From Nitrospira japonica (GTDB lineage Bacteria > Nitrospirota > Thermodesulfovibrionia > Thermodesulfovibrionales > SM23-35): a DNA stretch of 51,312 bases. The notes under the pieces were generated by a model. It saw nothing but the letters and a program-made list of their open reading frames with translations. It was not told where the DNA came from and did no database searches. The stretch spans positions 1 to 51,312 of the forward strand of contig DYFC01000019.1 of the NCBI GenBank assembly GCA_020725385.1. The letters run 5' to 3'. Numbering within the stretch: position 1 is the stretch's first letter; each line of letters starts with the position of its first letter. Made by a program: the position numbers and the translations under genes. Positions 1-33,351 of the stretch are shown here, one piece after another.

Positions 1-112
1 CTCGATAATTTTTATATCAAAAGATATTTATTGGCAATGAATAAAAAAGTTCATGGTAAATCATCTTTAAACGTACACTAAGGTATCGAAAAATAAATTT
101 TCTCGCAACATC

Positions 113-143
113 TGCATTATTTCAAATGCATTTTTTGGGTTCA
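113..143. repeat. Degenerate copy of the TTAACCCGAAAAATGCATTTTTCGGGTTAA palindrome family, downstream of mglA
   Basis: TGCATTATTTCAAATGCATTTTTTGGGTTCA; 124-141 matches the right part of the 41226 palindrome at 17/18; the left part is shared with 4605-4634. Confidence 0.6.
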
Positions 144-228
144 TCATGATCGCGTATGAATATTTTCATGGATCATAAATATTGCAGATATTATTTCCGG
201 AAAATACAGGAAAAGAAATTACTTATCG

Positions 229-816
229 CTAATAATGTTTTTTCAGTTCAAATAGAACTTGTTTTGCAACAGCTTTTAATGTCTCAAAAACACCTTTTCC
301 TGTTACTGCCACAGCTTCAAATGAAGGAACATTTCTATAATTGAGGAGTTTCTCAAGATCAGCTACAGGAACAATATTAGGCAAGTCTCTTTTATTATAT
401 TGGATTGCAAAAGGAAGTTTATCGAGATCATATCCTTGTTCGGCAAGATTTATTTTTAAATCATCAAGACTTTCAATATTTGATTCTGTTCTTTCTATCT
501 GGCTGTCTGCAACAAATACAACGCCGTCAACTCCCTTAAGAATTAGTTTGCGGCTTGCAGCATAAAAAACCTGACCCGGAACAGTATATAGATGAAACCT
601 TATCTTAAACCCTTTTATATCACCAAGAGCAAGAGGAAGAAAATCAAAAAATAAAGTTCTTTCAGTCTCGGTTGCAAGTGAAATAAGTTTGCCCTTTTGT
701 TCTGGATTTGTCTTTCTATAGATAAACTGGAGGTTGGTGGTCTTACCACACAATCCAGGGCCATAATAAACGATTTTACAGTTTATCTCGCGGGAGGAGT
801 AATTAATGAAAGACAC
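229..816 (-). CDS. mglA: MglA small Ras-like GTPase
   Basis: MSFINYSSREINCKIVYYGPGLCGKTTN P-loop, TETERTLFFDF switch I, MglA-specific TVPGQ, NKRD. Confidence 0.97.
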   Translation of the reverse strand: MSFINYSSREINCKIVYYGPGLCGKTTNLQFIYRKTNPEQKGKLISLATETERTLFFDFLPLALGDIKGFKIRFHLYTVPGQVFYAASRKLILKGVDGVVFVADSQIERTESNIESLDDLKINLAEQGYDLDKLPFAIQYNKRDLPNIVPVADLEKLLNYRNVPSFEAVAVTGKGVFETLKAVAKQVLFELKKHY

Positions 817-827
817 AGGGGATACAC

Positions 828-1322
828 CTACCTGAAAAGATTATCAATATCTTCATCACTAATTTCAGCAAAAAGGGCTTCTTCAAGCTTGCCTTCTCCT
901 TTTTCCTTTTCAACTTTTTTCGTAATCTCATCAAAAATTCCAGCAAGTGCCTCAGATGCTTTTTTCACCCTCAGTCTTACAAGTCCAAGAGATGTTCTGT
1001 TATCAAATATAACTACAAGAATAATTCTTTGTCCGATAAGTGAGATATGAATGTTGTCTTTTTCTCCTTCATGAAAAAGAATTGTAAATTCTTTTTCTCC
1101 AAGAAGTCTTGCTATACCGCCGGTAGCAGCTATATTGCCTGCTGTTAGAGATGCAAGGGAAGTGGTATCTATATCATGAGTTTCACCTGCGGAAGCGATT
1201 AGCTGACCATTTTTATCCACGAGGAAGACAACTTTAGCGTTTGCCTGATGATAAAGTTTCTTGAGTTCAGCGTCAATACGCTGGAACTCTTCTTCATACA
1301 TTATGAGGTCAGAACCCATCAT
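828..1322 (-). CDS. mglB: MglB roadblock/LC7-domain GTPase-activating protein
   Basis: VFLVDKNGQLIA, SLASLTAGNIAATGGIA, SLGLVRLRVKKA, AEISDEDIDNLF tail; directly upstream of mglA. Confidence 0.96.
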   Translation of the reverse strand: MMGSDLIMYEEEFQRIDAELKKLYHQANAKVVFLVDKNGQLIASAGETHDIDTTSLASLTAGNIAATGGIARLLGEKEFTILFHEGEKDNIHISLIGQRIILVVIFDNRTSLGLVRLRVKKASEALAGIFDEITKKVEKEKGEGKLEEALFAEISDEDIDNLFR

Positions 1323-1334
1323 ATCTTAACAATT

Positions 1335-1363
1335 ATCATAACCAACTATCTTGTAATTATCAA
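1335..1363 (-). promoter_or_regulatory. Putative sigma70 promoter for mglBA, overlapping the porB stop
   Basis: Minus strand TTGATA-17 nt-TATGAT, ending 12 nt before the mglB ATG. Confidence 0.55.
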
Positions 1364-2298
1364 GATGAAAAACAGGCTTCTTCTTTTTGCAGCCTTTCCC
1401 ATTCCCTGTCAATATCTTCCTGAATCTTTCTAAGAAGTTCTTCAGAATCGGGTTTGAAAAGATGCTTAAATCTTCCCTGTGGTTTAAGAAAATCAACAAT
1501 AGGTTTTTTCTCTTTTGGTTTGAAAGTTATTTTCGTTACCCCATTTTCAATTTCATATAATGGCCAGTAACATGTTTCTACAGCAAGCCTGCTTAGCATT
1601 ATAGCATCATCTGTTCTTGATCTCCATCCCCTATTGCATGGTGAGATAATATTCATAAATTTCGGGCCTGGAATTTCAAGAGCTTTTCTTACTTTTCTAA
1701 CAAGATCAGCCCAGTGGCTCGGAGATGCTTGAGCAGCATAAGGAATATTATGTGCTGCCATTATTTTTGTAAGGTTTTTTCTTTGCTCGGTTTTGCCTGG
1801 CACAACACTTCCAGCAGGTCTTGTTGTTGTATCAGCGCCAAATGGAGTTGCGCTTGAACGTTGAATACCTGTATTCATATATGCTCCGTTGTCATAGCAT
1901 ATATACAGCATATCATGACCGCGTTCCATAGCTCCTGAGAGACTCTGCAATCCTATATCATATGTTCCGCCATCACCACCAAAAGCAATAAATTTTATCT
2001 CTTTATCTATTTTACCCTGCTTTTTTAATGACCTGTACATAGTTTCCACTCCAGATATAGTTGCGGCAGCATTCTCAAAAGCATTGTGTATCCAAGGAAT
2101 CTTCCACGCAGTATAATCAGATATACAGCTTGATACTTCAAGACATCCGGTTGCATTTGATGCTATAACAGGATAATCTGATGCCAGTAAAACCATTTTC
2201 ACTACAATCGGCGCTCCACATCCTGCACATAATCTGTGTCCGGATGCTAATAATATCTCTTTCTTTGATAGTTCTTTTAATGTAACAGGCTTTGCCAT
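1360..2298 (-). CDS. porB: Pyruvate:ferredoxin oxidoreductase beta subunit (TPP-binding)
   Basis: GHRLCAGCG, ATGCLEV, GGDGGTYDIG TPP motif, YMNTGIQRS. Confidence 0.93.
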   Translation of the reverse strand: MAKPVTLKELSKKEILLASGHRLCAGCGAPIVVKMVLLASDYPVIASNATGCLEVSSCISDYTAWKIPWIHNAFENAAATISGVETMYRSLKKQGKIDKEIKFIAFGGDGGTYDIGLQSLSGAMERGHDMLYICYDNGAYMNTGIQRSSATPFGADTTTRPAGSVVPGKTEQRKNLTKIMAAHNIPYAAQASPSHWADLVRKVRKALEIPGPKFMNIISPCNRGWRSRTDDAIMLSRLAVETCYWPLYEIENGVTKITFKPKEKKPIVDFLKPQGRFKHLFKPDSEELLRKIQEDIDREWERLQKEEACFSS

Positions 2299-2299
2299 T

Positions 2300-3481
2300 T
2301 TATTCCCTCACTCCTATATATTCCTTATAGCTTTTTACTTTTCCTGTCTCTGCAATATCTACAAGTTCATTAAGAACAATCTCAGCATGTTCAGGCAGAT
2401 AATCCCTTCCACCAAGTCCGTATATTTTATTTACCAATACAGGTTTATCTTTAAACGGATAAAGACTTGCAGCAATATCTGAATATACTGGCCCAAAAGA
2501 AGAACCAAAACAATCAGCTCTGTCAAGAACACATAAAGCTTTTAAATGTTTTAGAGCTTCTCCTGTTTCTTCATATGGGAATGGTCTGTATAAACGTGGT
2601 TTGAGTAATCCGGCCTTTATACCTTTATTTCTGAACTCATCAATCACATCTTTTGTTGTTCCGGCAGCAGAATTTAGAATAACAATTCCTATTTCAGCAT
2701 CCTCAAGTCTGTAAGTCTCAAATAAGCCATATTTTCTCCCTGACAATTTCTCAAAATCAGAAGCAACATCAAGAACTACTTTAGAAACTTTTGTATTAAC
2801 CTCTGCCTGTGCTCTTCTGAATTCCATATAATAATCGGGTAGAATAAGAGGGCCGTAACTTACAGGATGCTGAATATCAAGTAAAGGATAAAGTTGTTTG
2901 AAATCTCCTACAAAATTCTGAACCTGTTCGTCATCAAGATATTCTATCCTTTCAATTGAATGGCTTATTATAAATCCATCAAGACATATCATCACAGGGA
3001 GTCTTATATCTATATGCTCTGCAATAGGAAACGCCTGAATGGTATTATCATATGCTTCCTGAGCATTTTCAGACCATAGTTGTATCCATCCTGTATCTCG
3101 TGCATACATTGCATCTGAATGATCTCCGTGTATGTTTAAAGGTGCTGATAGAGCTCTGTTGACAACAGGCATAACAATGGGCAATCTTGTGCCCGAGGCA
3201 ATGTATAAAATCTCATTCATTAAAGCCAGCCCTTGTGAAGATGTAGCTGTGATAACCCTGCCTCCTGCTGCAGAAGCACCTACACATGCACTCATAGAAC
3301 TATGTTCGCTTTCAACAAGAATCAATTCTGTTTTGACTTTTCCATCAGAAACAAAACTTGAAAATCTCTGCATCATATCGGTTTGTGGAGTTATTGGATA
3401 TGCAGCGCATACATCAGGATTAACCTGTCTGAGGGCATTGGCTACAGCTTCATTCCCTGTTACAGCGACTATCTTTGCCAT
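2300..3481 (-). CDS. porA: Pyruvate:ferredoxin oxidoreductase alpha subunit
   Basis: AAYPITPQT, ESEHS, TATSSQGL, NRALSAPLNIHGDHSD. Confidence 0.93.
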   Translation of the reverse strand: MAKIVAVTGNEAVANALRQVNPDVCAAYPITPQTDMMQRFSSFVSDGKVKTELILVESEHSSMSACVGASAAGGRVITATSSQGLALMNEILYIASGTRLPIVMPVVNRALSAPLNIHGDHSDAMYARDTGWIQLWSENAQEAYDNTIQAFPIAEHIDIRLPVMICLDGFIISHSIERIEYLDDEQVQNFVGDFKQLYPLLDIQHPVSYGPLILPDYYMEFRRAQAEVNTKVSKVVLDVASDFEKLSGRKYGLFETYRLEDAEIGIVILNSAAGTTKDVIDEFRNKGIKAGLLKPRLYRPFPYEETGEALKHLKALCVLDRADCFGSSFGPVYSDIAASLYPFKDKPVLVNKIYGLGGRDYLPEHAEIVLNELVDIAETGKVKSYKEYIGVRE

Positions 3482-3774
3482 TATTTGCCCTCCTCTACCA
3501 TAATAATTGCTTTGTTGCCTTTCTTACCCGGACATTCAAGCGCGCATATTCCGCAACCTTTGCAATATTCGTAATCAAATTCTCCGCGTTTGCCATCTTT
3601 TACTTTCACCGCATTATCAGGGCAATATATCCAGCAAAAAAGGCACTGGATACAATTTTCTTCTTTCCATACAGGTTTGGATGACCTCCATGAGCCTGTC
3701 TTAAATTTTTCAGAACTCCCCGGCTCTGTTATTACCGAGCCAGGATTAACTTCTTTCCAGTTCTTAAGTTTCAT
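3481..3774 (-). CDS. porD: Pyruvate:ferredoxin oxidoreductase delta subunit (2x[4Fe-4S])
   Basis: KTGSWR, CIQCLFCWIYCP, CKGCGICALECP. Confidence 0.93.
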   Translation of the reverse strand: MKLKNWKEVNPGSVITEPGSSEKFKTGSWRSSKPVWKEENCIQCLFCWIYCPDNAVKVKDGKRGEFDYEYCKGCGICALECPGKKGNKAIIMVEEGK

Positions 3775-4346
3775 CCTTCTTTTACCTCCTCATATCCGCG
3801 CCTTGTTGCCTCGAGGTTCCCATCTATAATTTTTTGCGAGAATTTTTTACCAAAACTTTTCCTTACATCTTCAAGGAGGTGCTCAAGTGTTACAAGACCT
3901 GTAACTTTACATACTGCCCCAAGCATCGGCGCATTCGGAAGAGCTCTTCCTATATGTTCAAGAGCGATCTTTGTAGCATCTATTGTAAATACTTTTTGTG
4001 TAGGCAAAGCATTAAGTTTTTTCCTGATTTCCTGTGGATCTCTTGAAGTGTTTACTATAAATATAGCATCCTCTTTAGCTCCTTCAGTAACATTTACAGC
4101 ATCAAGCAACGTAGCATCAACTATGCTTACTACCTGTGGATGTAAAACAGGACAATGCATTCTTAATTCATGTGAACTTATACGGTTATATGCTCTTAAA
4201 GGTGCTCCTGCTCTTTCAGGTCCGTATTCGGGAAATGCCTGAACGTGTCTTCCACCGCTTAGACATGCATCAGCAAGAACTTTTGCTGCCGTAACTGTTC
4301 CCTGCCCCCCCCTGCCATGCCATCTGATTTCCAATGTATCAGCCAT
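3771..4346 (-). CDS. porC: Pyruvate:ferredoxin oxidoreductase gamma subunit
   Basis: EIRWHGRGGQGTVTAA, FPEYGPERAGAP; start placed at the second ATG (4346) by GGAGG spacing. Confidence 0.93.
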   Translation of the reverse strand: MADTLEIRWHGRGGQGTVTAAKVLADACLSGGRHVQAFPEYGPERAGAPLRAYNRISSHELRMHCPVLHPQVVSIVDATLLDAVNVTEGAKEDAIFIVNTSRDPQEIRKKLNALPTQKVFTIDATKIALEHIGRALPNAPMLGAVCKVTGLVTLEHLLEDVRKSFGKKFSQKIIDGNLEATRRGYEEVKEG

Positions 4347-4436
4347 AGTCATCCTCCGGGTATTTTTAAAGAAAGTTTTTTATTTTAGCATAAAATACAT
4401 TAAAAATTTCAAAAAAGAAATTACTAACTTGAGAAA

Positions 4437-4590
4437 AAAGCTATCAAGCTGGCAAGCCTTCAAGCGAATAAAGGCGTAAGCATTTGAAAAATGATCATGA
4501 TGAATAGCAAAGAGCGCAGAACAAAGAGCAAAAATCTTAAAACATGAGGTGTGAGCGCATTTTTCAACTACTTACGATTTACGATTCACG
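4437..4590. repeat. Composite intergenic repeat: octamer run, 19-bp imperfect inverted repeat enclosing heptamers, second heptamer run
   Basis: CTATCAAG CTGGCAAG CCTTCAAG; arms 4475-4493 and 4558-4576 are 17/19 complementary; AGCAAAG AGCGCAG AACAAAG AGCAAAA; TTACGAT TTACGAT TCACGG. Confidence 0.65.
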
Positions 4591-4604
4591 GAAAAATCTT
4601 AATA

Positions 4605-4634
4605 TGCATTATTTCAATTGCATTTTCAGGTTAA
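4605..4634. repeat. Degenerate copy of the TTAA-palindrome family, downstream of the NuoG-like gene
   Basis: TGCATTATTTCAATTGCATTTTCAGGTTAA, closely similar to 113-143. Confidence 0.55.
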
Positions 4635-4657
4635 GTAATATAAAAACAAATCTATTG

Positions 4658-6682
4658 TTAAACAGCTACCGCAGTGACAGCTTCCTTAAGCCAGGCAAGT
4701 CTTCTCCCTTTTAAGACAGATGCATTTATTGATTCAATAAATTCTTTAGGAGTTATTTCGAATCCATCTCTTCTCACAAAAGGTGCAAAAGAAAGTTTTG
4801 GTTTAACTTTAACCAATTTATTGACCTCATTTTCAGAAGGTTTTTTCAAAGGTGATTTCATAATTTTTGATATAGCTATAAAAATATCCCTGTGATTTTT
4901 TGAAGTTCCTATTGGTTCAATTGCTTGATTCAGTTTCTTGAGTCTTCCAAGATAATCAATTATAGTTCCTTCGGTTTCATACTGGGTTGTTGAAGGCAGC
5001 ACAATATCTGCCTGTTCTGCAAGTTCTGTGAAATGTGAGGTCTGAACTATTAAAAATTCTGTACGGGGAGGTCTTGTATTTAAAGGAACTTCTCCGACTA
5101 CATATAGGACTTTCATCCCTTTATTAACCATATCTGAATAAGATTTACCTTCTGTTGTTAAACCGGATAAAGCTACCCCCCTTGCATTACTTTCGAATCC
5201 TACTGCAATTACTTTACCTTTGATTATTGCCAGATTTGCGGAGGAATCAAACAATGAAGGAGAAGTGAATATAACAGGGTTTTGAGCTTCTTCGATAATT
5301 TTAGCTGCTTTTTCAATATCTTCTGTTACAACCGCATCTTTAACAGCATTTTCAAGTTGAACATCTGCTTTAAGACCCCTGTCAATTAAAGATTTAATAA
5401 GACCTTTTAAGGTTGAAACTTCATCACCTTTAAGGGTTATAGTGGCTGCCTCTTCTATTTTAATGTCCGCTGAAGTTATAACCAGAAGTTTTCCTCCTCT
5501 ATTAACTCTTTTTCTTATAGATGCGTCAAGAGCAGGTAATACTCTATTCCATTGTGAAGGGTTGAGCCCGATAAGAATGATTAGATCGGAATTGGTTATT
5601 AAAGCAGATTGGGAATCTTTCATAGCGTGAATATCTGAATATAGACTTAAGGTTGTATCAAAATTTTTTGTCTTAACGACATTTTTTGCAAATCTCTTTA
5701 ATGCCAGAGCATCCTCATTTGTAATACCCGCAGTGCTTATAAAACCAGTTTCATTGCCTGCTTCTTTTAGTTTTGTAGCTACTATACTTAATGCTTCTTT
5801 CCATGTAGTTTCTTTTAAAGCATTATTTTCTCTTTTTAAAGGAGTTGTAAGCCTTGTTCTGTCTTCAACATAATCGTATCCAAAACGTCCATAAGCACAA
5901 ATATATTTCTTGGTTGAACCGGGTTTTTCACCTGTATTAATTTTTTGAATGCCACCGTCTTTTACACTTATTAAAATATCGCAACCATTCCCGCAAAAAA
6001 GACATACAGAAGGAATTTTTGTATATTCCCATTCCCTTCCTTTGCGCCATCTGTCTGCTTCAGGAAGCGCATTAACAGGACATGCATCAATGCAACTACC
6101 GCAAAAAGTACAACCTGATTCTCTTAAAGATTTGTTGTACGCTGTACCAATTTCTGCATTTATACCTCTTCCTATGAAATCCAGGACATTGGTTCCCTGT
6201 TCTTTACACATACGAACACATCTTCCGCATAGTATGCAATATTCAGGGTCTCTTCTAATAAACGGATTTATCTGGTCAATAGGATACCCCATTTTTTTCT
6301 TTATAAACGAAGTAGTCTTTAATTCATATTCATATGCATATTCCTGAAGTTTGCAAATGCCTGCCTTTGTGCAAGTCATGCAATCAAGAGGATGTATGGA
6401 AAGTATCAAATCAAGAATGAATCTTCTGATATTCCTCACTTTTTCTGTCTGGGTATGCACTACCATACCTTCTCTTACTTTTGTATTACAGGCAATAACA
6501 GGAGACTTTAAACCTTCTACTTCTACCAGACAAAGTCTGCAAGCACCAAAACCTTTCATGCCTTTGAGGTAACAAAGATTAGGAATAAACACATCAACCA
6601 GATGTCCGGCATCTAATATATTCATCCCCTCTGGAGCAATTACCTCTTTTCCGTCTATCTGAAGTTTTACCTTCTTTTCCAT
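4658..6682 (-). CDS. NuoG/FdhA/SfrA-like Fe-S protein with a molybdopterin-oxidoreductase fold but no metal-ligand Cys/Sec
   Basis: [2Fe-2S] PNLC..GACRLCLV..AC; HPLDCMTC..C; CILCGRCVRMC and CTFCGSCIDACP; CLFCGNGC..CAYGRFG; the FdhA ligand loop reads NFDTTLSLY; SD GAGGAGG before ATG 6682. Confidence 0.8.
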   Translation of the reverse strand: MEKKVKLQIDGKEVIAPEGMNILDAGHLVDVFIPNLCYLKGMKGFGACRLCLVEVEGLKSPVIACNTKVREGMVVHTQTEKVRNIRRFILDLILSIHPLDCMTCTKAGICKLQEYAYEYELKTTSFIKKKMGYPIDQINPFIRRDPEYCILCGRCVRMCKEQGTNVLDFIGRGINAEIGTAYNKSLRESGCTFCGSCIDACPVNALPEADRWRKGREWEYTKIPSVCLFCGNGCDILISVKDGGIQKINTGEKPGSTKKYICAYGRFGYDYVEDRTRLTTPLKRENNALKETTWKEALSIVATKLKEAGNETGFISTAGITNEDALALKRFAKNVVKTKNFDTTLSLYSDIHAMKDSQSALITNSDLIILIGLNPSQWNRVLPALDASIRKRVNRGGKLLVITSADIKIEEAATITLKGDEVSTLKGLIKSLIDRGLKADVQLENAVKDAVVTEDIEKAAKIIEEAQNPVIFTSPSLFDSSANLAIIKGKVIAVGFESNARGVALSGLTTEGKSYSDMVNKGMKVLYVVGEVPLNTRPPRTEFLIVQTSHFTELAEQADIVLPSTTQYETEGTIIDYLGRLKKLNQAIEPIGTSKNHRDIFIAISKIMKSPLKKPSENEVNKLVKVKPKLSFAPFVRRDGFEITPKEFIESINASVLKGRRLAWLKEAVTAVAV

Positions 6683-6709
6683 CAAATCCTCCTCGATTTA
6701 GGAATATGC

Positions 6710-9409
6710 TTAAGTTTTAGCTAATATTTCTTCTTTAACTTTTGAAATAATCTCAATAGCTCCTGTCGGACAATATTTGACACATTCACCACAGCGGGCA
6801 CATGCTTTTTGTTTAATCTCGAAATATGTATATTCAGAAGGCCGCGATTCCGATGCTTTAGCCATGATCGCTTCAAATTTACATTTTTTCAAACATTCAC
6901 CACATCTGATGCAAAGGTCAGGATTTATTAAATAAGAAATTGAACTGATGCATTCTCTATTTGAACAAATACCCGATAAATGAAGCCTGAATTCCTCTTC
7001 TGATGAAGATAGTATTTCAGAAAGAAATCTTCCTGTATCTCTTCCTTTTTTACAAAAAGAGGCTTCAATCATGTTTGAGGCAATTGTTTTTAATGCATCA
7101 ATATCGTTTTCTCCTGCACCTTCAAGTTTTTGTGTAATTCTTAATAATCTTAATTTAGCTTCTTCTGTGCCAAATGAACATGGATAGCATCTACCGCACA
7201 TTGGTCCTTCAATAAACTCCTCGATAAAAGTAAGGGATTTTTGAACAGGGCATATCTTCTTTTCGACATCGTGGAATATTTCATCAAGAGGAATATCAAC
7301 AGGGACCTGTTCTTTTTCCTTTAACCCTTCATAGGCAATCTCAGCAGAAGCAACTTTTAAAAACTTGCCTATTTTTTCATACTTAATAGCTCCCATCGGA
7401 CAGACATTGAAACAATCACCACATTTTTTGCATATATTACTGTCAATGATAAAACCTGTTGAAGTTTCTTTTATAGCATCAACCCTGCATACATTTATAC
7501 AGCTTCTGCAGAAATAACAGAGTTCTTTGTCTATATAGAGAACAGGTTGTTCTTTGATTTCAATTGCTCCCAGAGGACACACACTAAAACATGCCTTGCA
7601 TCTCTGACACAGAACCTGATCAATATAAAAGAAACCTTCATTGGATTCCTTTATGGCTTCAAATGGACAGGCATCCATACAGCGTTTACATTGATAACAT
7701 ATATCAGTATTAAGATGAAGCTGTCCCAATCCCTGACATACAAAAGCTCTGCAATATTTATTTTTAATATGCTCTTCATATTCATCTCTGAAGTATTTTA
7801 TTGTGGTAAGAACAGGATTTGGAGCGCTTTTCCCGAGTCCGCAAAGAGAAGCACTCTTTATATAATTTCCAAGTTCTTCAAGTCTTTCTATATCTCCTTC
7901 TTCTCCATTCCCCGATGTAATCTTCTCGAGTATTTGTAGCATTTGGAAAGTTCCCACCCTGCAGGGGTAGCATTTACCACATGATTCGGATTGGCAGAAA
8001 GATAAGAAAAATTTTGCTACATCAACTATACAATTATCTTCATCAAGAACAACCATGCCCCCTGAACCCATTATCGAGCCAATTTTTGTCAGAGAATCAA
8101 AATCTATTGGTAGATCAAGATATTTTTCAGGAATACAACCTCCGGAAGGACCTCCTGTCTGTACTGCTTTAAACTTTTTATCTCCAATTATCCCGCCGCC
8201 AATGTCATAAATAATTTCTCTAAGGGTTATACCCATCGGCACTTCAACAAGTCCTGTATTCTTCACTTTTCCTGTAAGTGCAAAAACCTTTGTGCCGGGT
8301 GAATTTTGAGTTCCTGTCTTTAAAAACCATGTGGCCCCTTTTTCAATAATTGCAGGTACACATGCATAAGTTTCGATATTGTTCAAATTTGCCGGATAAC
8401 CCCATGGACCGCCGCCTTTTTCGGATAATCTGGGTGGTCTTGGTCTCGGAAATCCTCTTTCACCTTCTATTGAACTGACGAGAGCCGTAGCTTCACCACA
8501 AACAAAGGCTCCTGCACCTTCTCTAATCTGAATTGAGAAATTAAATCCTGTTCCAAGAACATTTTCGCCAAGAAGTCCGATTTCTTCTGCCTGCTTTATA
8601 GCAGTTGAAAGGTGTTTTACAGCAAGGGGATATTCATGCCTGACATAAATAATTCCATAATGAGCTCCAATTGCATATGCACAAAGCATCATTCCTTCGA
8701 GCAAGCTATGGGGGTCGCCTTCCATAATTGATCTATCCATAAAAGCGCCGGGGTCGCCTTCATCTCCATTTGCTATAACAATCTTTTCTGTACCCGAAGA
8801 ATTTTTTGTATGTTCCCATTTTATTCCAGCCGGAAAACCTGCGCCACCTCTGCCTCTTAAATTCGCTCTTTTTACTTCATCAAGAACCTGCTGGGGTGTC
8901 ATAACAGTAAGGGCTTTTTCAATAGCTCTGTACCCACCAACAGCGATATAGTGAATAATATTTTCAGGGTCTATTCTTCCATTATTCCTGAGTGCTATTC
9001 TAAGTTGTTTTCTATAAAAAGGAACATCTTTTATAAAATAAGCGGGCTTTTCACCAAGAGAACGCCTGAACAATAGATCCCATACAGGTCTTTCACCTTT
9101 CAAAGTGAAGGAAATTATGTCTTCAGATCTTTCAGGCTTAACTTTATGATAAAAATAGCCCTGAGGCTGAATAGTCATGACAGGACCTAATTGACACAAG
9201 CCCTGACAGCCGGTAGTTATTATTTCTGCATCAACTCCGGATTCTTTAATATCTTTTTTCAACTTATCAACAAGTTTAAGTGAATTATTCGCTCTACAAG
9301 CTGTTCCGCAACAAACTCTAATTCTTTTTTTGTTTGGAGCAAGGACACCATCTTTGAGTAATTTTTCGCGTAGAGACTTCAGGTCATCTAAACTTTTTAG
9401 TTTTTGCAT
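6710..9409 (-). CDS. Extended NuoF/HydB-like flavoprotein with extra ferredoxin domains and a duplicated C-terminal module
   Basis: Thioredoxin-like [2Fe-2S] CCGTAC..GCQGLC; GRGGAGFP, DEGDPGAFMDR, GAFVCGEATAL; ESCGKCYPC..CGLG; six CxxCxxCxxxC motifs; second MCGRCYPC..CKKG module. Confidence 0.85.
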   Translation of the reverse strand: MQKLKSLDDLKSLREKLLKDGVLAPNKKRIRVCCGTACRANNSLKLVDKLKKDIKESGVDAEIITTGCQGLCQLGPVMTIQPQGYFYHKVKPERSEDIISFTLKGERPVWDLLFRRSLGEKPAYFIKDVPFYRKQLRIALRNNGRIDPENIIHYIAVGGYRAIEKALTVMTPQQVLDEVKRANLRGRGGAGFPAGIKWEHTKNSSGTEKIVIANGDEGDPGAFMDRSIMEGDPHSLLEGMMLCAYAIGAHYGIIYVRHEYPLAVKHLSTAIKQAEEIGLLGENVLGTGFNFSIQIREGAGAFVCGEATALVSSIEGERGFPRPRPPRLSEKGGGPWGYPANLNNIETYACVPAIIEKGATWFLKTGTQNSPGTKVFALTGKVKNTGLVEVPMGITLREIIYDIGGGIIGDKKFKAVQTGGPSGGCIPEKYLDLPIDFDSLTKIGSIMGSGGMVVLDEDNCIVDVAKFFLSFCQSESCGKCYPCRVGTFQMLQILEKITSGNGEEGDIERLEELGNYIKSASLCGLGKSAPNPVLTTIKYFRDEYEEHIKNKYCRAFVCQGLGQLHLNTDICYQCKRCMDACPFEAIKESNEGFFYIDQVLCQRCKACFSVCPLGAIEIKEQPVLYIDKELCYFCRSCINVCRVDAIKETSTGFIIDSNICKKCGDCFNVCPMGAIKYEKIGKFLKVASAEIAYEGLKEKEQVPVDIPLDEIFHDVEKKICPVQKSLTFIEEFIEGPMCGRCYPCSFGTEEAKLRLLRITQKLEGAGENDIDALKTIASNMIEASFCKKGRDTGRFLSEILSSSEEEFRLHLSGICSNRECISSISYLINPDLCIRCGECLKKCKFEAIMAKASESRPSEYTYFEIKQKACARCGECVKYCPTGAIEIISKVKEEILAKT

Positions 9410-9445
9410 GGTTATTTGACCTTTCTAAAAAATGAGAATTAAAGC

Positions 9446-9934
9446 TTATTTTTTTCTAATAAATTTTATAAGTCCTTCAATTTTTCCTGTGCTTGTTATG
9501 TCTCCTACAACCTCGTCATTTACAGTAGTTACAGGAGCAAGCCCGCAACATCCGACACAACCAACAGTCTCAAGGGTTATGGAAAGGTCACTTGAGGTTT
9601 CACCATTTTTTAGCTGGAATTCATTTTCTAAAGTATTAAGAACTTTTTTTGAACCTCTGACGTAACAGGCGGTTCCAAGGCAGACTTTAACAAGTTTTTT
9701 CCCGCGTGGTGTAAAACGAAACATTTTATAAAAACTTGCTACACTGAATATCTCTGACATGGAAAGACTTAATTTTGAAGAGAGCTTTTTTACGATTTCT
9801 TCAGGTATATAACCATATTCTTCCTGAATTTGCTGAAGTAGATGAATTAATATCCCACGTTTTTTTTGTTTGCCACTTAATAGACTTCCAATACTTCCAA
9901 TTTGGAAGTTTTCGTTTACAGCTTCAATCTCCAT
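9446..9934 (-). CDS. NuoE/HydC-like [2Fe-2S] subunit
   Basis: LIHLLQQIQEEYGYIP, VASFYKMF, VCLGTACYVRG, CVGCCGLAPV. Confidence 0.9.
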   Translation of the reverse strand: MEIEAVNENFQIGSIGSLLSGKQKKRGILIHLLQQIQEEYGYIPEEIVKKLSSKLSLSMSEIFSVASFYKMFRFTPRGKKLVKVCLGTACYVRGSKKVLNTLENEFQLKNGETSSDLSITLETVGCVGCCGLAPVTTVNDEVVGDITSTGKIEGLIKFIRKK

Positions 9935-10046
9935 ATCGACTCCCTTTCAGCCCCCCGACTGAAGCAGTTTATATATTTTTCTTTTTAAGTAATTTTATAA
10001 CTCTATAATCAAAAAAGCAATAATTTTTTAATAATATCTTAAAAAT

Positions 10047-10075
10047 TTGACTTAATTCCTTTACTGCTATATATT
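10047..10075 (+). promoter_or_regulatory. Putative sigma70 promoter giving a leaderless or near-leaderless yicC transcript
   Basis: TTGACT-17-TATATT, ATG after 7 nt, no SD. Confidence 0.6.
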
Positions 10076-10082
10076 TTATTAC

Positions 10083-10931
10083 ATGATACAGAGCATGACA
10101 GGATTTGGCAGTAGTTCAACAGATGTTTTCACGGTTGAAATACGCTCATTAAATCACAGGTATATGGACATTTTTATAAAACTGCCTTCTTACTTAAATC
10201 ATGCAGAGATGCAAATAAGAAATATTATCAAGGAAAGATTCAGTAGGGGCAGGTTTGATGTTACAATATCTATTAATCCTGAAAAGACATCCCGGTTTAC
10301 AATAAGTAAGAATGTTGCAGAAAATATATATAAAGCTCTTCAATCTTTGCAGAGAGAACTCATGATTCCAGGTGAAATTGGCATAGAGACACTTGCGGCT
10401 TATAAAGAAATATTGCTTGAGAAAGAACCTGAATATAATATTGATGATTTACTTTCTACGGTTTATGAGGCGATTAAAAATCTCGAAGCAATGCGTATAG
10501 AAGAAGGAAAGAATTTACAAAAAGAGCTTTTAAGTAGAATAGAGGTTTTAAGAGATTTAAATGATAAAATTAGGATTAAAGCTCCTGATGAAGTTCCAAA
10601 GCTTAAAGAAAAATTTACAGAGCGATTGAAACTTTTTTTAGAAACTGAAAATATTGAAAGCAATAGAATTTTGCAGGAAGCTGCAATACTGGCTGATAAG
10701 CTTGATATTTCAGAAGAAATATCAAGAATACAAAGTCATATAAAACAGTTTAAAGAAGTCATAGATAGCGGGACAGTTGTCGGGAAAAAACTTGATTTTA
10801 TTCTTCAGGAACTTGGAAGAGAAGTAAATACTCTTTCGTGCAAGTCTGCTGATTATGAAATTTCAAGCATGGTAATTGAAATGAAAACAGAAATTGAAAA
10901 AATAAGAGAACAGGTGCAAAATATACAATAA
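10083..10931 (+). CDS. yicC: YicC/YloC family endoribonuclease
   Basis: MIQSMTGFG, EIRSLNHRY, DISEEISR, GKKLDFILQELGREVNTL, EKIREQVQNIQ. Confidence 0.95.
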   Translation: MIQSMTGFGSSSTDVFTVEIRSLNHRYMDIFIKLPSYLNHAEMQIRNIIKERFSRGRFDVTISINPEKTSRFTISKNVAENIYKALQSLQRELMIPGEIGIETLAAYKEILLEKEPEYNIDDLLSTVYEAIKNLEAMRIEEGKNLQKELLSRIEVLRDLNDKIRIKAPDEVPKLKEKFTERLKLFLETENIESNRILQEAAILADKLDISEEISRIQSHIKQFKEVIDSGTVVGKKLDFILQELGREVNTLSCKSADYEISSMVIEMKTEIEKIREQVQNIQ

Positions 10932-10943
10932 TAGGGAGAAGTT

Positions 10944-11225
10944 ATGAAAAAAGGTGAAATTACAAATGTACTGGTTAATATAGGTTTTGGAAATGTTGTA
11001 GCTGCATCAAGAGTTGTTGCTATTGTAACTCCAGGATCTGCTCCGATGAAAAGACTAAGAGAGGAAGCAAAAAAAACAGGCAGACTTGTTGATGCTACAG
11101 AGGGAAGACGTACCCGCTCGATTATTGTCACTGATAGCAACCATATAATATTATCTGCAATACAGGCGGAAACTATTACCCAGCGTTTTATGGAAGGAAC
11201 TGAAATAGGTGCAGAAGAAGAATAG
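10944..11225 (+). CDS. remA: DUF370/RemA family regulatory protein
   Basis: [42 protein letters not shown]; conserved position between yicC and gmk. Confidence 0.88.
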
Positions 11226-11835
11226 GGGCAGACTTTTTATTGTTTCTGCTCCTTCAGGTGCTGGCAAAACAACACTTTGTCAGAAAATAATCAAGAAACA
11301 TCCTCAGATTAAGTTTTCAGTATCTTATACTACCCGAATGCCCCGTAAAGGTGAAATAAATAATGTAGATTATACATTTATTGATAGGGAAGAATTTAAA
11401 AGAATGGTATCAGAAGGCAAATTTCTTGAGTGGGCAGAAGTCCACGGAGAATTCTACGGGACATCGCGTGAGAGAATAAAAAGCCTTATTGAAGAGGGTT
11501 TTGATGTTGTTCTCGATATTGATACACAGGGGGCTCTTCAATTAAAGGAAAAGGGAGAAAAAGGTGTTTTTATCTTCATATTACCTCCTTCAATGGAGGC
11601 CCTCAAGCAAAGACTTGTTCGTAGAATGACGGATTCTAAGGATCAGATTTTAAGGAGACTTAAAAGAGCTATAGAAGAAATAAGAACTTATAATTTATAT
11701 GATTATGTTATAATTAACGATATACTTGAAAATTCTATAAAAGAATTTGAAGCTGTTATTATCTCCAATAGGATAAAAACAGAAAATATTAATCCCTTAT
11801 GGATACAAGAGACGTTTTTAAATCAGGAGGTTTGA
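11209..11835 (+). CDS. gmk: Guanylate kinase
   Basis: [45 protein letters not shown]; GTG start. Confidence 0.97.
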
Positions 11836-11842
11836 AAGAAGT

Positions 11843-12247
11843 ATGGACATTATTTCATTGCCAATCGAATACGATCACTCAAAGATAGACAGCAGGTTCA
11901 GGCTAATTGCAATTGCTTCACAGAGAGCAAAGGAATTGGCTTTGGGTGCAACACCAAGAGTTAAAACAAAGTCCAAAAAGGTAACTACAATCGCTATAGA
12001 AGAAACTATAAACAATACTGTAGAGTTTCTTGTAGGTGAAGAAGCTGTAAAAGCAAGAGAAGAAGCCAGTAAGTTTGATTACAGGAAACTCCTTGAAGAG
12101 AAAAAGAGAGAGGTTACATCAGAAGATCTTACTGAATTTGAAAAAGATCTGAAGGTTTATCTTAATGAAAGAGAAGCTCTTGAAAGGGACAAAAAGGCAC
12201 TTGAGGGGCTTTTCGGAGACAAACAAGAGGAAGGTGCTGAAGAATAA
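11843..12247 (+). CDS. rpoZ: RNA polymerase omega subunit with long charged C-terminal extension
   Basis: IDSRFRLIAIASQRAKEL, KVTTIAIEE; gmk-rpoZ-coaBC order. Confidence 0.9.
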   Translation: MDIISLPIEYDHSKIDSRFRLIAIASQRAKELALGATPRVKTKSKKVTTIAIEETINNTVEFLVGEEAVKAREEASKFDYRKLLEEKKREVTSEDLTEFEKDLKVYLNEREALERDKKALEGLFGDKQEEGAEE

Positions 12248-30962: not shown

Positions 30963-31736
30963 CTATTTGAATTTTAAAAAATATTCATCCATCTCAGGTC
31001 TTAATTCCAAGCCTACTCTCTCAAAGCAATCTAATAATTCTGAGTATGCTCCTTTCCCTCCAAGAAAGTCCCAAAATTCTTCCGCAACTTTTAGTTCATT
31101 ATTCAAATCAAGCATACCTTTTAATGTCCATCTTTCATAGGGTTTTGGTTCATAAGGATTATATGGAATTGCAATATAAGAATGTACATCTGAAGTAGGA
31201 TGACCTGATAAATAAATTGCTATCCATTCTAATAATGTTCTCTTAAAATCCTTGAAATTACTGATATTAGGCTTAGCTGTTTTTAAATCGAATAAATGGA
31301 CAGTTCCGTCTTTGCCTTTAACAAACAAATCAACCTTTACAGTTTTTAATTTATTCATTGTGCCCTTATTGCAGACTTTTCTTATCCTTGCAATTTCTTC
31401 CACTTTATTAGGTACGTTTCCAATAGTCAGTTCATTCATGATGTGTTGAATTTCTGTCTGTGCCTGTTCGCTTATTGTATTACCCACTACGAATTGTTTC
31501 TGTGCAACAGGGAAGTTTAAGCTTGCCAAAGTTTCTGCCACAGGCTCAAAAATAGAAGTGCCGAAAGTGGTATTCAAAGAATGGATGAAAGAAAATAATG
31601 CCATTCTATCCTGCCCGAGTAAGCGATAATGGAACGGCATATTATTGGTCTCGGGTTTATAAGATAGAAATTTATTTTTTAGGCTCTCCTTGATGGTATT
31701 TTCAACTCTCTTTATTTGTTCTTTTGAAAGGGCCAT
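30963..31736 (-). CDS. Type II restriction endonuclease, TdeIII/MjaII-like
   Basis: MPFHYRLLG, SLNTTFGTSIFE, VDLFV..DLKTAKPN (PD-(D/E)xK-like), IPYNPY; 1 nt after the methylase stop. Confidence 0.75.
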   Translation of the reverse strand: MALSKEQIKRVENTIKESLKNKFLSYKPETNNMPFHYRLLGQDRMALFSFIHSLNTTFGTSIFEPVAETLASLNFPVAQKQFVVGNTISEQAQTEIQHIMNELTIGNVPNKVEEIARIRKVCNKGTMNKLKTVKVDLFVKGKDGTVHLFDLKTAKPNISNFKDFKRTLLEWIAIYLSGHPTSDVHSYIAIPYNPYEPKPYERWTLKGMLDLNNELKVAEEFWDFLGGKGAYSELLDCFERVGLELRPEMDEYFLKFK

Positions 31737-31737
31737 T

Positions 31738-33351
31738 TTATATTTCCTTTAAGTGAAAAATTGTTTCTGCATAGGCGGTATCTCTGTCTTTTTCTACTCT
31801 GTTAAGAACAGGCCGTTTAAATCTATTAACTATTTTCATCTCTGCCGATTCTGCTATCTTGGGATAGAGATTGAATTTATCGTTAGCAACTAAGAAAATA
31901 TCATAGTCAGACTGAAGATATCTTTTACAATTTTTTAAGACTTCTGCTATGCCCTGTGTGTAGAACTCCCTTGCTTCTTTCCCCTGCCCCTTGAATAAAT
32001 GTCCTATTTCCAGTTCATCTTTTCGCTTAAGACCAAACATTTCATATGCATAGGCATGTTGTTCATGATAAGCAATTAGCCCAACATAAGGAGGACTCGA
32101 AAAGATTCCTCTTATTTTTTGTTTTGATAAAATTTCTGCAAGTTCGAGATTTAATTTCTTAGTTTCTTCAAAAATATCAATTGTTCTGCTATCCCCCACT
32201 AAGCAAAGTTGATAGGTCTCTGTCCTAAACTTGTTAAACTCATCGAGGCGATTTAATGTATCTACAGTATAAGTCTGCCACCAATTGGCAATAGTAAAAA
32301 TTGGCTTACAGATTTTTCCATGTTTTTTACAGTAATATGTAGTTGTAATGGGCTCTCTTAGAGTAGCTAAATCAGCATGTGTAGTCGCTCTGCAAGAACG
32401 AACTGTTCTACTTAAGATAACTGCTAAAACTCTCTTAATATCTTCATTCGCTATAGTAGTTTTCAATTCGTTAGATAAAAAATCAATTTCTTCTCTCACA
32501 GGCAATAAAAACCACCTATCCAAAAAAGTATCATTTCTATTCTGTTTTATTTTAATTTGATATTTTTCTACTAGAGCATAGTAAATATCCAGAAATTCCT
32601 TTTCTCTTATACTGGCATACTTACTCTCGTTGATTTCACCTCTTGCAACTTTTCTCTTATATTCTGGTGATGGGAAATATTTAGCATTGAATTTTGCAAG
32701 TTCTGATAATAGATGCTCTTCAAAAATAATATTGTTTCTGGTTTTCTGGAAGTCCTTTAGTCGTGATGTTAGTTTATGTATTGCATTTGCGATTAAAGGT
32801 AGATTATGTTTCTTTATTTTGATATTGGTAATCAATGCATTGAAGGAAGATATATCTATTCCAATAGCATGCATTCCAAGTTCATTTGCCTGTACTAGTG
32901 TTGTCCCGCTACCGCAAAAAGGATCTAATACTATATCGCCTTCATGAAAATAAATCTCTCTTTTAAATTCATCAGTATGAGAGTCAAGAAAATATTCTAC
33001 TAACTGAGGGATAAACTTTCCTTTATACGGATGTAACCTATGTACATGCTTTGTCCTTTCTGATTCTGTATATTCTATAAAAGACAAGTGCCAATTGAGG
33101 TCATCTCCCAATATCTTTTTAAGCCGCTTCTCTTTATTATTAAGCGAGTCATAATAGTCTTTTAGCTCTTCTACATTTAACAGAGGGTTGCCGTTGTTAC
33201 CATATTTGTTTATTCTTCCATATTGAATAAGATAGAGAATGTTTGAAATGGTAACTTTACGATTCAGATATTGAGAAGCCCATTCGCTGGCTTCTTTTAA
33301 ATTAAGCATTTTTATATCTTTTTTTTCGAAGAATGTTAACTGGTTCATCAT
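31738..33351 (-). CDS. DNA amino-methyltransferase (probably N4-cytosine) with an N-terminal HTH-like segment
   Basis: HPYKGKF, DPFCGSGTT (motif I) before SSPPY (motif IV); N-terminal LNLKEASEWAS..ISNILYLIQYG. Confidence 0.85.
   Translation of the reverse strand: MMNQLTFFEKKDIKMLNLKEASEWASQYLNRKVTISNILYLIQYGRINKYGNNGNPLLNVEELKDYYDSLNNKEKRLKKILGDDLNWHLSFIEYTESERTKHVHRLHPYKGKFIPQLVEYFLDSHTDEFKREIYFHEGDIVLDPFCGSGTTLVQANELGMHAIGIDISSFNALITNIKIKKHNLPLIANAIHKLTSRLKDFQKTRNNIIFEEHLLSELAKFNAKYFPSPEYKRKVARGEINESKYASIREKEFLDIYYALVEKYQIKIKQNRNDTFLDRWFLLPVREEIDFLSNELKTTIANEDIKRVLAVILSRTVRSCRATTHADLATLREPITTTYYCKKHGKICKPIFTIANWWQTYTVDTLNRLDEFNKFRTETYQLCLVGDSRTIDIFEETKKLNLELAEILSKQKIRGIFSSPPYVGLIAYHEQHAYAYEMFGLKRKDELEIGHLFKGQGKEAREFYTQGIAEVLKNCKRYLQSDYDIFLVANDKFNLYPKIAESAEMKIVNRFKRPVLNRVEKDRDTAYAETIFHLKEI

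Follow-up and report, generated by a model that had tools for sequence, protein, structure and literature searches.

A HydABC-type flavin/iron-sulfur core without a catalytic site of its own, encoded upstream of pyruvate:ferredoxin oxidoreductase in a Nitrospirota genome

A stretch of 51,312 nucleotides (the window) from a genome assembled as Nitrospira japonica (phylum Nitrospirota; GenBank assembly GCA_020725385.1, contig DYFC01000019.1) carries three genes for relatives of NuoE, NuoF and NuoG upstream of the genes for a pyruvate:ferredoxin oxidoreductase (POR). We refer to them as bfuC, bfuB and bfuA, after the Bfu (HydABC-type) family. The locus raises the question which third redox partner, besides NAD(H) and ferredoxin, such a core would serve. 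We propose that it is the adjacent POR, in a 'Por-Bfu' system coupling pyruvate/acetyl-CoA + CO2 to NAD(H) and ferredoxin; with transient docking included, we judge the chances of this reading to be evenly balanced.

The gene bfuC (9446..9934, minus strand) encodes a thioredoxin-fold [2Fe-2S] subunit of 162 residues resembling NuoE and HydC (Pfam PF01257, E = 9e-45). According to its Pfam domains and solved relatives, bfuB (6710..9409, minus strand) encodes a NuoF/HydB-like FMN/NADH subunit of 899 residues with a polyferredoxin extension. The product of bfuA (4658..6685, minus strand) is a NuoG/Fdh-like iron-sulfur subunit of 675 residues, as judged by Pfam and its five cluster sites. All three are uninterrupted open reading frames (ORFs) and form a row of seven minus-strand genes together with porC, porD, porA and porB (1360..4352, minus strand), which Pfam and NCBIfam identify as a four-subunit POR. 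Pfam and NCBIfam searches of the window found no membrane subunit genes adjoining bfuCBA. This agrees with a first-pass annotation made from the sequence alone, which had described NuoE-, NuoF- and NuoG-like genes in a row without membrane subunits.

Schut et al. (2022, Front Microbiol 13:946711; PMC9304861) define BfuB by a NuoF-type FMN domain, an SLBB domain, a NuoF-type [4Fe-4S] domain and a 4Fe-4S ferredoxin-type domain, and BfuA by at least one 2Fe-2S ferredoxin-type and one 4Fe-4S ferredoxin-type domain. For NiFe-Bfu, section 6 of that paper names C438, C476, H525, C531 and C536 as residues of the B2 site, with a threonine in place of C476 in about two thirds of the BfuB sequences. Non-bifurcating homologues are described there as lacking the B2 His/Cys, B3/B4 and B5 sites.

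Pfam assigned to the BfuB of the window an N-terminal 2Fe-2S_thioredx domain, Complex1_51K (PF01512), SLBB (PF10531), NADH_4Fe-4S (PF10589) and six Fer4 motifs. The N-terminal thioredoxin-like [2Fe-2S] domain with the B5 site (residues 26–100; 9110..9334, minus strand) contains Cys33/34, Cys38, Cys68 and Cys72; it gave a partial match to PF01257 and could be aligned with the solved chain 7t2r_B. Residues 179–560 (7730..8875, minus strand; PF01512, PF10531, PF10589) comprise the FMN/NADH domain with the AFMDR motif (residues 222–226), the SLBB domain and the four-helix [4Fe-4S] domain (N3/B1) with the B1 ligands C477, C480, C483 and C523. The B2 site lies in the same region. Its residues C460, T498, H547, C553 and C558 correspond to C438, C476, H525, C531 and C536 of 7t2r_B in the alignment. 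The canonical C-terminal 2x[4Fe-4S] domain (B3/B4) is formed by residues 561–620 (7550..7729, minus strand), with CxxCxxCxxxC motifs at 571 and 601, and aligns to the end of 7t2r_B. Pfam and the 7t2r_B alignment confirm the HydB features noted in the first-pass annotation, namely the N-terminal [2Fe-2S] domain, AFMDR and the C-terminal dicluster domain. An 'H..C....C' site reported there is present as well, with the spacing H547-x5-C553-x4-C558 instead of the one originally written.

The best solved relative of BfuB was 7t2r_B with an E-value of 7e-223 (residues 28–616), compared with 3.5e-106 for Thermus Nqo1. The eight best full-length solved relatives (E-values from 7e-223 to 2e-183) include chains of 8a6t, 7q4v and 7p5h as well as 8oh5_B, 9mqx_B, 9bov_B and 9n5u_B. 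We take 7t2r_B to be a NiFe-HydB, the chains of 8a6t, 7q4v and 7p5h to be HydB subunits, and 8oh5_B, 9mqx_B and 9n5u_B to belong to bifurcating-type enzymes. The entries 9BOV and 9BP5 represent NfnABC from Caldicellulosiruptor saccharolyticus (PMC11829005).

The solved HydB-type chains align to residues 1–620 only, and BfuB is about 280 residues longer than any of them. This extension holds five extra [4Fe-4S] motifs, which were overlooked in the first-pass annotation, and consists of one more dicluster domain followed by a duplicated half. The extra 2x[4Fe-4S] ferredoxin domain is built up by residues 621–705 (7295..7549, minus strand; CxxCxxCxxxC at 631 and 660). It occupies the place of a CBS pair in a paralogue linked to carbon monoxide dehydrogenase/acetyl-CoA synthase (CODH/ACS), and is also found in tandem bfuB copies of 694–698 residues in relatives. 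Residues 720–899 (6713..7252, minus strand) are an internal duplicate of the protein's own C-terminal half, recognized by BLASTP (residues 440–620 against 720–899: 32 % identity, E = 2e-21) and by a second PF10589 stretch. The duplicate contains an N3-like CxxCxxC...C site, a B2-like His/Cys/Cys site and a 2x[4Fe-4S] domain, and its ligand columns are invariant in 31 sequences. In CODH-linked operons the half-BfuB is a separate protein of about 202 residues. All 11 por-linked bfuB ORFs encode proteins of 896–905 residues that have the eight cluster motifs in common. In a collection of 5.8 billion proteins the fused form is rare and accounts for 29 clusters, 27 of them 893–908 residues long. 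The family of free half-BfuB proteins gave 650 matches with generic names only; just 25 representatives at 50 % identity reach E <= 1e-30.

BfuC carries Cys85, Cys90, Cys126 and Cys130 (also Cys129) as C1 [2Fe-2S] site. Its scores were below the cut-offs of all NCBIfam HoxE and NuoE models. In BfuA, Pfam recognized the domains Fer2_4, NADH-G_4Fe-4S_3, Fer4, Molybdop_Fe4S4 and Molybdopterin. The five cluster sites comprise Cys38/49/52/66, His98/Cys102/105/111, two CxxCxxCxxxC motifs and Cys228/231/235/263, and are invariant in 13 orthologues. Taken together, the complete BfuB domain set, the B1, B2, B3/B4 and B5 sites, the C1 site of BfuC and the ferredoxin-type domains of BfuA are all found here. 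As none of the ligand sites defined for BfuB and BfuC is missing, we assign the three proteins as BfuC, BfuB and BfuA of the Bfu family; from this sequence content BfuCBA is predicted to bifurcate electrons.

The molybdopterin-type domain of BfuA (4865..5854, minus strand; Pfam) is pterin-less. Neither a Molydop_binding (PF01568) nor an Fe_hyd_lg_C (PF02906) domain was found on BfuA by Pfam, and the metal-ligand loop is deleted, so the earlier observation that the third protein has no H-cluster motifs and no catalytic centre was correct. The first-pass annotation had further read NFDTTLSLY (residues 341–349; 5639..5665, minus strand) as a metal-ligand loop without cysteine. Its position was given exactly, but according to our alignments the motif flanks the place from which the Cys/Sec-His loop (Sec, selenocysteine) has been deleted. 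The gap measures 8 residues relative to a Sec-containing FdhA from the same genome and 6 residues relative to 6tg9_A, a formate dehydrogenase alpha chain. The loop is thus missing rather than substituted. Tyr349, the last residue of the motif, is invariant in the orthologues. A Mo/W site ligated by selenocysteine or cysteine was ruled out, as there is no in-frame stop codon and the loop is absent. The closest solved match of BfuA was 9bov_A, the Fdh/NuoG-like domain of NfnA from C. saccharolyticus (profile search, E = 5.6e-93); the score against the FdhA family model TIGR01591 was 146.6 with a cut-off of 666.25. Hence bfuCBA encodes a flavin/iron-sulfur core without a substrate or catalytic site of its own.

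One place where such a core might belong is complex I. In this genome the nuo operon (contig C31, 43362-53826; 5363-15826 of the fetched locus L058) reads nuoABCDHIJKLMN without E, F and G, which the first-pass annotation had suggested checking. BfuCBA could accordingly be a detached N-module that docks on NuoBCDI as a split 'Nuo-Bfu'; Nuo-Bfu enzymes have been predicted for Nitrospirae (PMC9304861). BfuA aligns end to end with NuoG and the 75-kDa chains of complex I, and its match to the NuoG model TIGR01973 spans positions 2–602 of 606. This match, however, scored 354 bits with a cut-off of 470.05, and BfuB reached 481 against the NuoF model TIGR01959 with a cut-off of 558.65. Two genomes from other families (G030 and G032) have nuoF and nuoG between nuoD and nuoH and nevertheless contain a CODH-linked Bfu module, while three others (G034, G035 and G038) have NuoH and no full-length BfuA match. 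The gene context of the module is CODH/ACS or POR, never nuo. Finally, the NuoD of this genome (492 residues) has an inserted dicluster ferredoxin-like stretch at about residues 311–395, a candidate entry port for ferredoxin. We therefore regard a detached N-module as very improbable. The nuoB ORF on the same contig appears to be truncated at its 5' end.

The genome (G000, 96.6 % complete) belongs to an uncultured relative of sulfate reducers with a Wood-Ljungdahl pathway and holds four sets of NuoE/NuoF-like genes. Besides the set in the window there is a sister module, also missing from the first-pass account, in the CODH/ACS operon (contig C3 17114-24809 and contig C11 1-3722; L009 9114-16809 and L010 2-3722). 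It consists of cdhD, acsB, the CODH gene, bfuC, a bfuB with a CBS pair, a separate half-BfuB gene (202 residues) and a bfuA for a pterin-less protein of 675 residues; the assembly breaks inside bfuB. The third set, on contig C27 (L012 5847-10806), adjoins a gene for formate-tetrahydrofolate ligase and contains bfuC, a bfuB of 592 residues and an FdhA gene with one in-frame TGA. In the alignment this TGA falls on the Sec/Cys ligand position, which makes the set a candidate Sec-dependent bifurcating formate dehydrogenase. The fourth set, on contig C23 (L011 10233-14925), brings together a NuoE-like protein, a short NuoF-like protein of 538 residues with an N-terminal [2Fe-2S] domain and no C-terminal ferredoxin domain, and an FdhA-like protein of 866 residues with a dinucleotide-binding domain.

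The first-pass annotation had suggested that the third redox partner is encoded elsewhere. We found no orphan partner in the genome. A hidden hydrogenase was ruled out: no [FeFe] H-domain (PF02906) was detected in the 96.6 %-complete assembly, and the three NiFe hydrogenase loci are accounted for by a soluble four-gene set, a periplasmic-type pair and weak matches beside a second NuoH-like gene (contig C60). The two formate-dehydrogenase-type genes are each accompanied by their own NuoE/NuoF-like genes. Ordinary exchange between NAD and ferredoxin is provided for by Rnf and an NfnAB-like pair.

These findings bear on the view that BfuCBA is a free-standing, soluble NADH/ferredoxin enzyme whose third partner or carrier lies elsewhere, which meets POR through the free ferredoxin pool only, the adjacency of the genes reflecting shared regulation. 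Such an enzyme lacks an evident counterpart here, since no orphan catalytic partner was found, the NiFe loci examined have electron-transfer subunits of their own (for the C60 locus there are weak matches only) and the formate-dehydrogenase-type genes have their own NuoE/NuoF-like partners. In addition, a Bfu core with sites for NAD(H) and ferredoxin alone would have no third couple to bifurcate with. The gene context described below is a further point against it, and we consider a free-standing enzyme rather unlikely, although several properties of the por locus speak in its favor (see below).

Gene neighborhoods were mapped by tblastn over 120 fetched loci of relatives (numbered L; their genomes, G). 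BfuA rows were retained if their coverage was 93 % or higher, their identity exceeded 45 % and the match contained no stop codon; all others were dropped, which left 112 rows. In 67 of these bfuA lies behind CODH/ACS genes, in 15 (11 distinct sequences) before porC and in one, from genome G032, in both positions; for the remaining 29 the context is not visible because of contig ends. Wherever porC follows bfuA in these 15 loci (11 distinct BfuA), the order is bfuB-bfuA-porCDAB. An assembly artefact was ruled out, as the same architecture is found at 11 distinct loci. The CODH-linked order is cdhD-acsB-CODH-bfuC-bfuB-(half-BfuB)-bfuA; in one genome (G028, L041) the bfu genes have cdhD on one side and acsB on the other.

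Trees of BfuA (94 distinct sequences) and of the BfuB core were calculated with FastTree, midpoint-rooted and given SH-like (Shimodaira-Hasegawa-like) support values. The por-linked BfuA sequences form one clade (support 99), nested among CODH-linked copies from the same family. The module in the window is thus a lineage-specific paralogue of the CODH/ACS-operon module of Thermodesulfovibrionales. The por-linked BfuB cores group with the copies of 694–698 residues that bear the extra dicluster domain, and not with the CBS type (joint clade of 20 rows, support 88; inner clade of 17 rows, support 99). In ten loci, CODH/ACS operons contain two or three bfuB genes in tandem with one bfuC and one bfuA; the tandem copies are of a CBS type of about 775 residues and of the 694–698-residue type with the extra dicluster domain. 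In the sampled genomes the latter type occurs either in tandem in CODH operons or fused at the por locus.

The surroundings of por indicate how the module arrived there. In the clade of the window the order is yicC facing bfuC-bfuB-bfuA-porCDAB-mglB. Among 16 por loci from genomes without a por-linked module, yicC directly and divergently faces porC in five, one of them from a 100 % complete genome of the same genus (G001). As yicC faces porC where the module is absent, the module was inserted between the two, in por orientation. The gene bfuC is missing in the first-branching loci L067, L068 and L070, lies between bfuA and porC in L066 and upstream of bfuB in seven loci, so that the por-linked locus appears to have been completed stepwise. 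In G032, a genome of another family (L042; contig C1, 185500-204500), cdhD-acsB-CODH-bfuC-bfuB-halfBfuB-bfuA-porCDAB-mglB run in one direction. We regard this as a second, independent junction of Bfu and por genes, as judged from the gene order. Presence and absence across the related genomes was too uniform to discriminate between readings (full-length BfuA in 38 of 41, ACS in 40, PorA in 39 and NuoH in all 41).

With its sister paralogue inside CODH/ACS operons, the module family keeps company with low-potential CO2-reducing enzymes. The insertion directly upstream of porC, the second independent por junction and the sister module in the CODH/ACS operon make POR the more economical third partner; the same two facts, that the family joined por twice independently and lies in CODH/ACS operons, are hard to reconcile with a free-standing enzyme. 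Signs of a tightening operon are a bfuA-porC gap of 75 bp in L067, the position of bfuC between bfuA and porC in L066 and the lack of a terminator-like hairpin in the spacer of the window.

Based on the ligand sites and the gene context we propose the following mechanism for a Por-Bfu system, in which the physical or electronic link to POR, the bifurcation itself and the reaction direction are all putative. NAD(H) would bind at the FMN of BfuB, and low-potential ferredoxin would be served through the B2-B3-B4 branch of the same subunit. Mid-potential electrons could pass between FMN and POR via the iron-sulfur chain of BfuA, via the extra clusters of BfuB, or via both. With these extra clusters, BfuB may have a ferredoxin-like plug of its own that fits onto PorD; in a variant with transient docking, the fused half-BfuB would serve as a tethered ferredoxin. 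The net reaction would be 2 pyruvate + 2 CoA + NAD+ + 2 Fd(ox) <-> 2 acetyl-CoA + 2 CO2 + NADH + 2 Fd(red), where Fd is ferredoxin. For an organism with a Wood-Ljungdahl pathway, the reaction is probably of most use in the direction of pyruvate synthesis, in which half of the electrons would come from NADH and costly reduced ferredoxin would be spared. The sister module would do likewise for CODH/ACS.

A more far-reaching version of this idea, which we put forward tentatively and consider unlikely, is that half-BfuB is a dedicated protein-bound 'ferredoxin' branch that plugs the bifurcating core into CODH/ACS and pyruvate synthase, the two CO2-fixing enzymes of lowest potential in the Wood-Ljungdahl route. 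NADH and ferredoxin would then be confurcated independently of the free ferredoxin pool, and energy charge would control the CODH branch through the CBS-type BfuB. If true, this would be a previously unrecognized way for autotrophs living at the thermodynamic limit to spend less reduced ferredoxin.

Several observations weigh against POR as the partner. The first concerns the spacer of 305 bp between bfuA and porC (4353..4657, between two minus-strand genes; sequence and alignment). An alignment of 11 porC upstream regions revealed an extended -10-like element, TGCTAAAAT, at 4390-4382, with the porC ATG at 4346 following about 36 nt later. Six of the seven por-linked spacers retain this element, and all four yicC-porC spacers aligned, which come from genomes without the module, share its TAAAAT core. 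As the element is conserved both with and without the module, por has probably kept a promoter of its own and can be transcribed alone. A -35-like TTGAAA is located 19 nt from the -10-like element, beyond the spacing range of our sigma-70 scan. The scan gave 18 sites, compared with 18.9 expected, and none in the 305-bp spacer; the -10-like element was seen by alignment only. In L067, with its short gap, the -10-like motif was not seen. A terminator scan found no terminator-like hairpin on the coding strand of the spacer, the predicted fold of its 305 nt was no better than that of shuffled sequences (z = -0.57), and no Rfam match with E <= 0.1 was found in positions 1-12000 of the window. The 16 sequencing runs listed as containing positions 1360-9934 are all recorded as DNA, none as RNA.

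The neighborhood itself is a second point. The order of yicC, in part of the taxonomic order, and of mglB, at most loci examined, is conserved as well; because such unrelated neighbors stay in place, synteny within one clade carries little weight. POR is single-copy, 69–93 % identical and has the same subunit lengths with or without the module (PorA is single-copy at this identity in 39 of 41 relatives), that is, it shows no adaptation to a new partner, and genomes of the same genus do without the por-linked module. A comparison of por- and CODH-linked BfuA yielded 13 group-specific conserved positions in 675, mostly conservative, with 2 of the 13 in the pterin-less domain. The sites do not cluster on that domain and did not outline a surface for a partner. 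The three por-linked loci without a bfuC of their own suggest that subunits may be shared with the CODH-linked module and not be dedicated to POR. Lastly, Schut et al. point out that the need for bifurcation is not evident in a reaction at about -500 mV (PMC9304861). The promoter-like element and the long spacer, the unchanged POR of genomes without the module, the few paralogue-specific changes in BfuA and the three loci without bfuC are at the same time points in favor of a free-standing BfuCBA.

POR might also be linked to NAD in a simpler way, handing all of its electrons to NAD+ or receiving them from NADH through the module, without ferredoxin as co-substrate. The PadH subunit makes phenylglyoxylate:acceptor oxidoreductase NAD-dependent. 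Of the four POR subunits, PorC and PorD scored above the NCBIfam cut-offs (PorC_KorC, 212 bits; PorD_KorD, 106 bits), while PorA and PorB were below the equivalog cut-offs (PorA_Arch, E = 2.5e-145; PorB, E = 5e-115). The weaker NCBIfam matches of all four include subunits of NADH-dependent phenylglyoxylate dehydrogenase, so NAD-linked enzymes exist in the oxidoreductase family of POR. The gene context is shared with the Por-Bfu reading and speaks equally for this one. Yet the B2 His/Cys, B3/B4 and B5 sites of BfuB are kept here and across the clade, and Rnf and NfnAB already cover the ordinary exchange between NAD and ferredoxin. A non-bifurcating NAD-linked POR thus seems improbable.

Among HydABC/Bfu enzymes, the established cases of bifurcation are hydrogenases, Nfn/Stn transhydrogenases, formate dehydrogenase and a tungsten aldehyde oxidoreductase. 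Por-Bfu, by comparison, has been predicted and is uncharacterized, with Dehalococcoides mccartyi 195 as example (PMC9304861). The published set comprises 12 sequences from Chloroflexi and Proteobacteria in BfuB clades 35, 44 and 45, out of 57 BfuB clades distinguished by Schut et al. It is assigned to 'Type 2', with a small BfuA that has clusters A1, A2 and A4 only and no A3 or A5 (PMC9304861); PMC12318220 likewise describes Por-Bfu as an uncharacterized Type 2. In the literature searched, the names Por-Bfu and Codh-Bfu occur only in these two papers, and among the papers listed for Thermodesulfovibrionia, the Wood-Ljungdahl pathway and nuoEFG none names the module in its title or abstract. 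The locus in the window shares with Por-Bfu the bfuABC genes beside four POR genes, a BfuBC core with all cofactor sites and the same proposed reaction. It differs in its NuoG/Fdh-like BfuA, which has a pterin-less domain and five cluster sites where Type 2 has a small BfuA, in the five extra [4Fe-4S] sites of BfuB including the duplicated C-terminal half, in its derivation from a CODH/ACS-linked module, and in its host, a member of Nitrospirota, a phylum for which the summary table of Schut et al. does not list Por-Bfu. On the published descriptions, then, the system would be a variant set apart from the predicted Por-Bfu, although Nitrospirota may stand among the clades of unknown function in PMC9304861. 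The CODH/ACS-linked sister module is paralleled by Codh-Bfu, which is reported in Firmicutes only and not listed for Nitrospirota (PMC9304861). Neither the duplicated half-BfuB nor the CBS-bearing BfuB isoform is described in the parts of PMC9304861 and PMC12318220 that we drew on.

The solved structures offer partial analogies. NiFe-HydABCSL (7T2R/7T30), whose structure was reportedly described by Feng et al. in 2022, includes the best solved relative of BfuB, with conserved B2 ligands. Its third partner is a NiFe hydrogenase pair in the operon, its BfuB has no extension, and its HydA aligns only with residues 4–344 of BfuA. The BfuA homologue of this enzyme, like the one studied here, has no catalytic site and relays electrons from separate catalytic subunits (PMC9304861). 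The Fdh/NuoG-like domain of NfnABC (Nfn-Bfu; 9BOV/9BP5) also has an incomplete, pterin-empty site, and its clusters A2-A4-A5 form a side branch (PMC11829005). NfnA owes its third substrate site to an inserted NfnL-like FAD/NADPH domain, whereas this insertion is absent from our BfuA. The Fdh-like branch of NfnA was judged a dead end (PMC11829005); here it would be the only way out of BfuA. In Wor-Bfu (WorABCSL) from Acetomicrobium mobile, a string of [4Fe-4S] clusters connects the bifurcating BfuABC core to a low-potential catalytic enzyme (PMC12318220). That wire consists of separate subunits of the WorS/CooF type held by the C-terminal helix of a small Type 2 BfuA (PMC12318220), whereas in the present family the extra clusters are fused to BfuB or reside in the half-BfuB paralogue. 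Wor-Bfu provides a precedent for the attachment of a Bfu core to an iron-sulfur wire. NuoEFG (Thermus Nqo1/2/3, PDB-entry 2FUG) shares ancestry and fold with BfuCBA, and NuoG too has a molybdopterin-type domain without cofactor. NuoF, in contrast, lacks the B2–B5 sites of BfuB, and the genes studied here lie outside the nuo operon and score below the cut-offs of its models.

Coupling of Bfu to pyruvate synthase and to CODH has so far only been predicted. The order provides a natural experiment in this respect, with a module that serves CODH/ACS in nearly all of its genomes, a recent copy before por, and close relatives that either have or lack it. Should the coupling exist, NADH could pay for half of the costliest reductions of the Wood-Ljungdahl pathway, which would bear on the low-energy survival of sulfate reducers and of acetogen-like autotrophs. 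The half-BfuB duplicate and the CBS-bearing BfuB offer new handles on how a Bfu core is wired to its partners and regulated.

Within the por genes the ORF calls are 3771-4352 for porC, 3481-3774 for porD, 2300-3481 for porA and 1360-2298 for porB. The first ATG of porC (4352) overlaps a GGAGGA ribosome-binding site, and the PorC proteins of relatives align from the second Met; translation probably starts at the second ATG (4346-4344), 6 nt past GGAGGA. On the other side of the module, bfuC is separated from the plus-strand gene yicC (10083-10931) by a divergent spacer (9935..10082). Downstream of porB, positions 229-1322 of the window hold an MglB-like roadblock/LC7 gene and a gene for a small Ras/Arf-like GTPase. 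This pair is also located 3' of porB in most relatives examined and has no obvious functional link to it. The remainder of the window consists of unrelated housekeeping genes, together with a type II restriction-modification pair at 30963-33351, made up of a TdeIII-family endonuclease and an N6/N4 DNA methylase.

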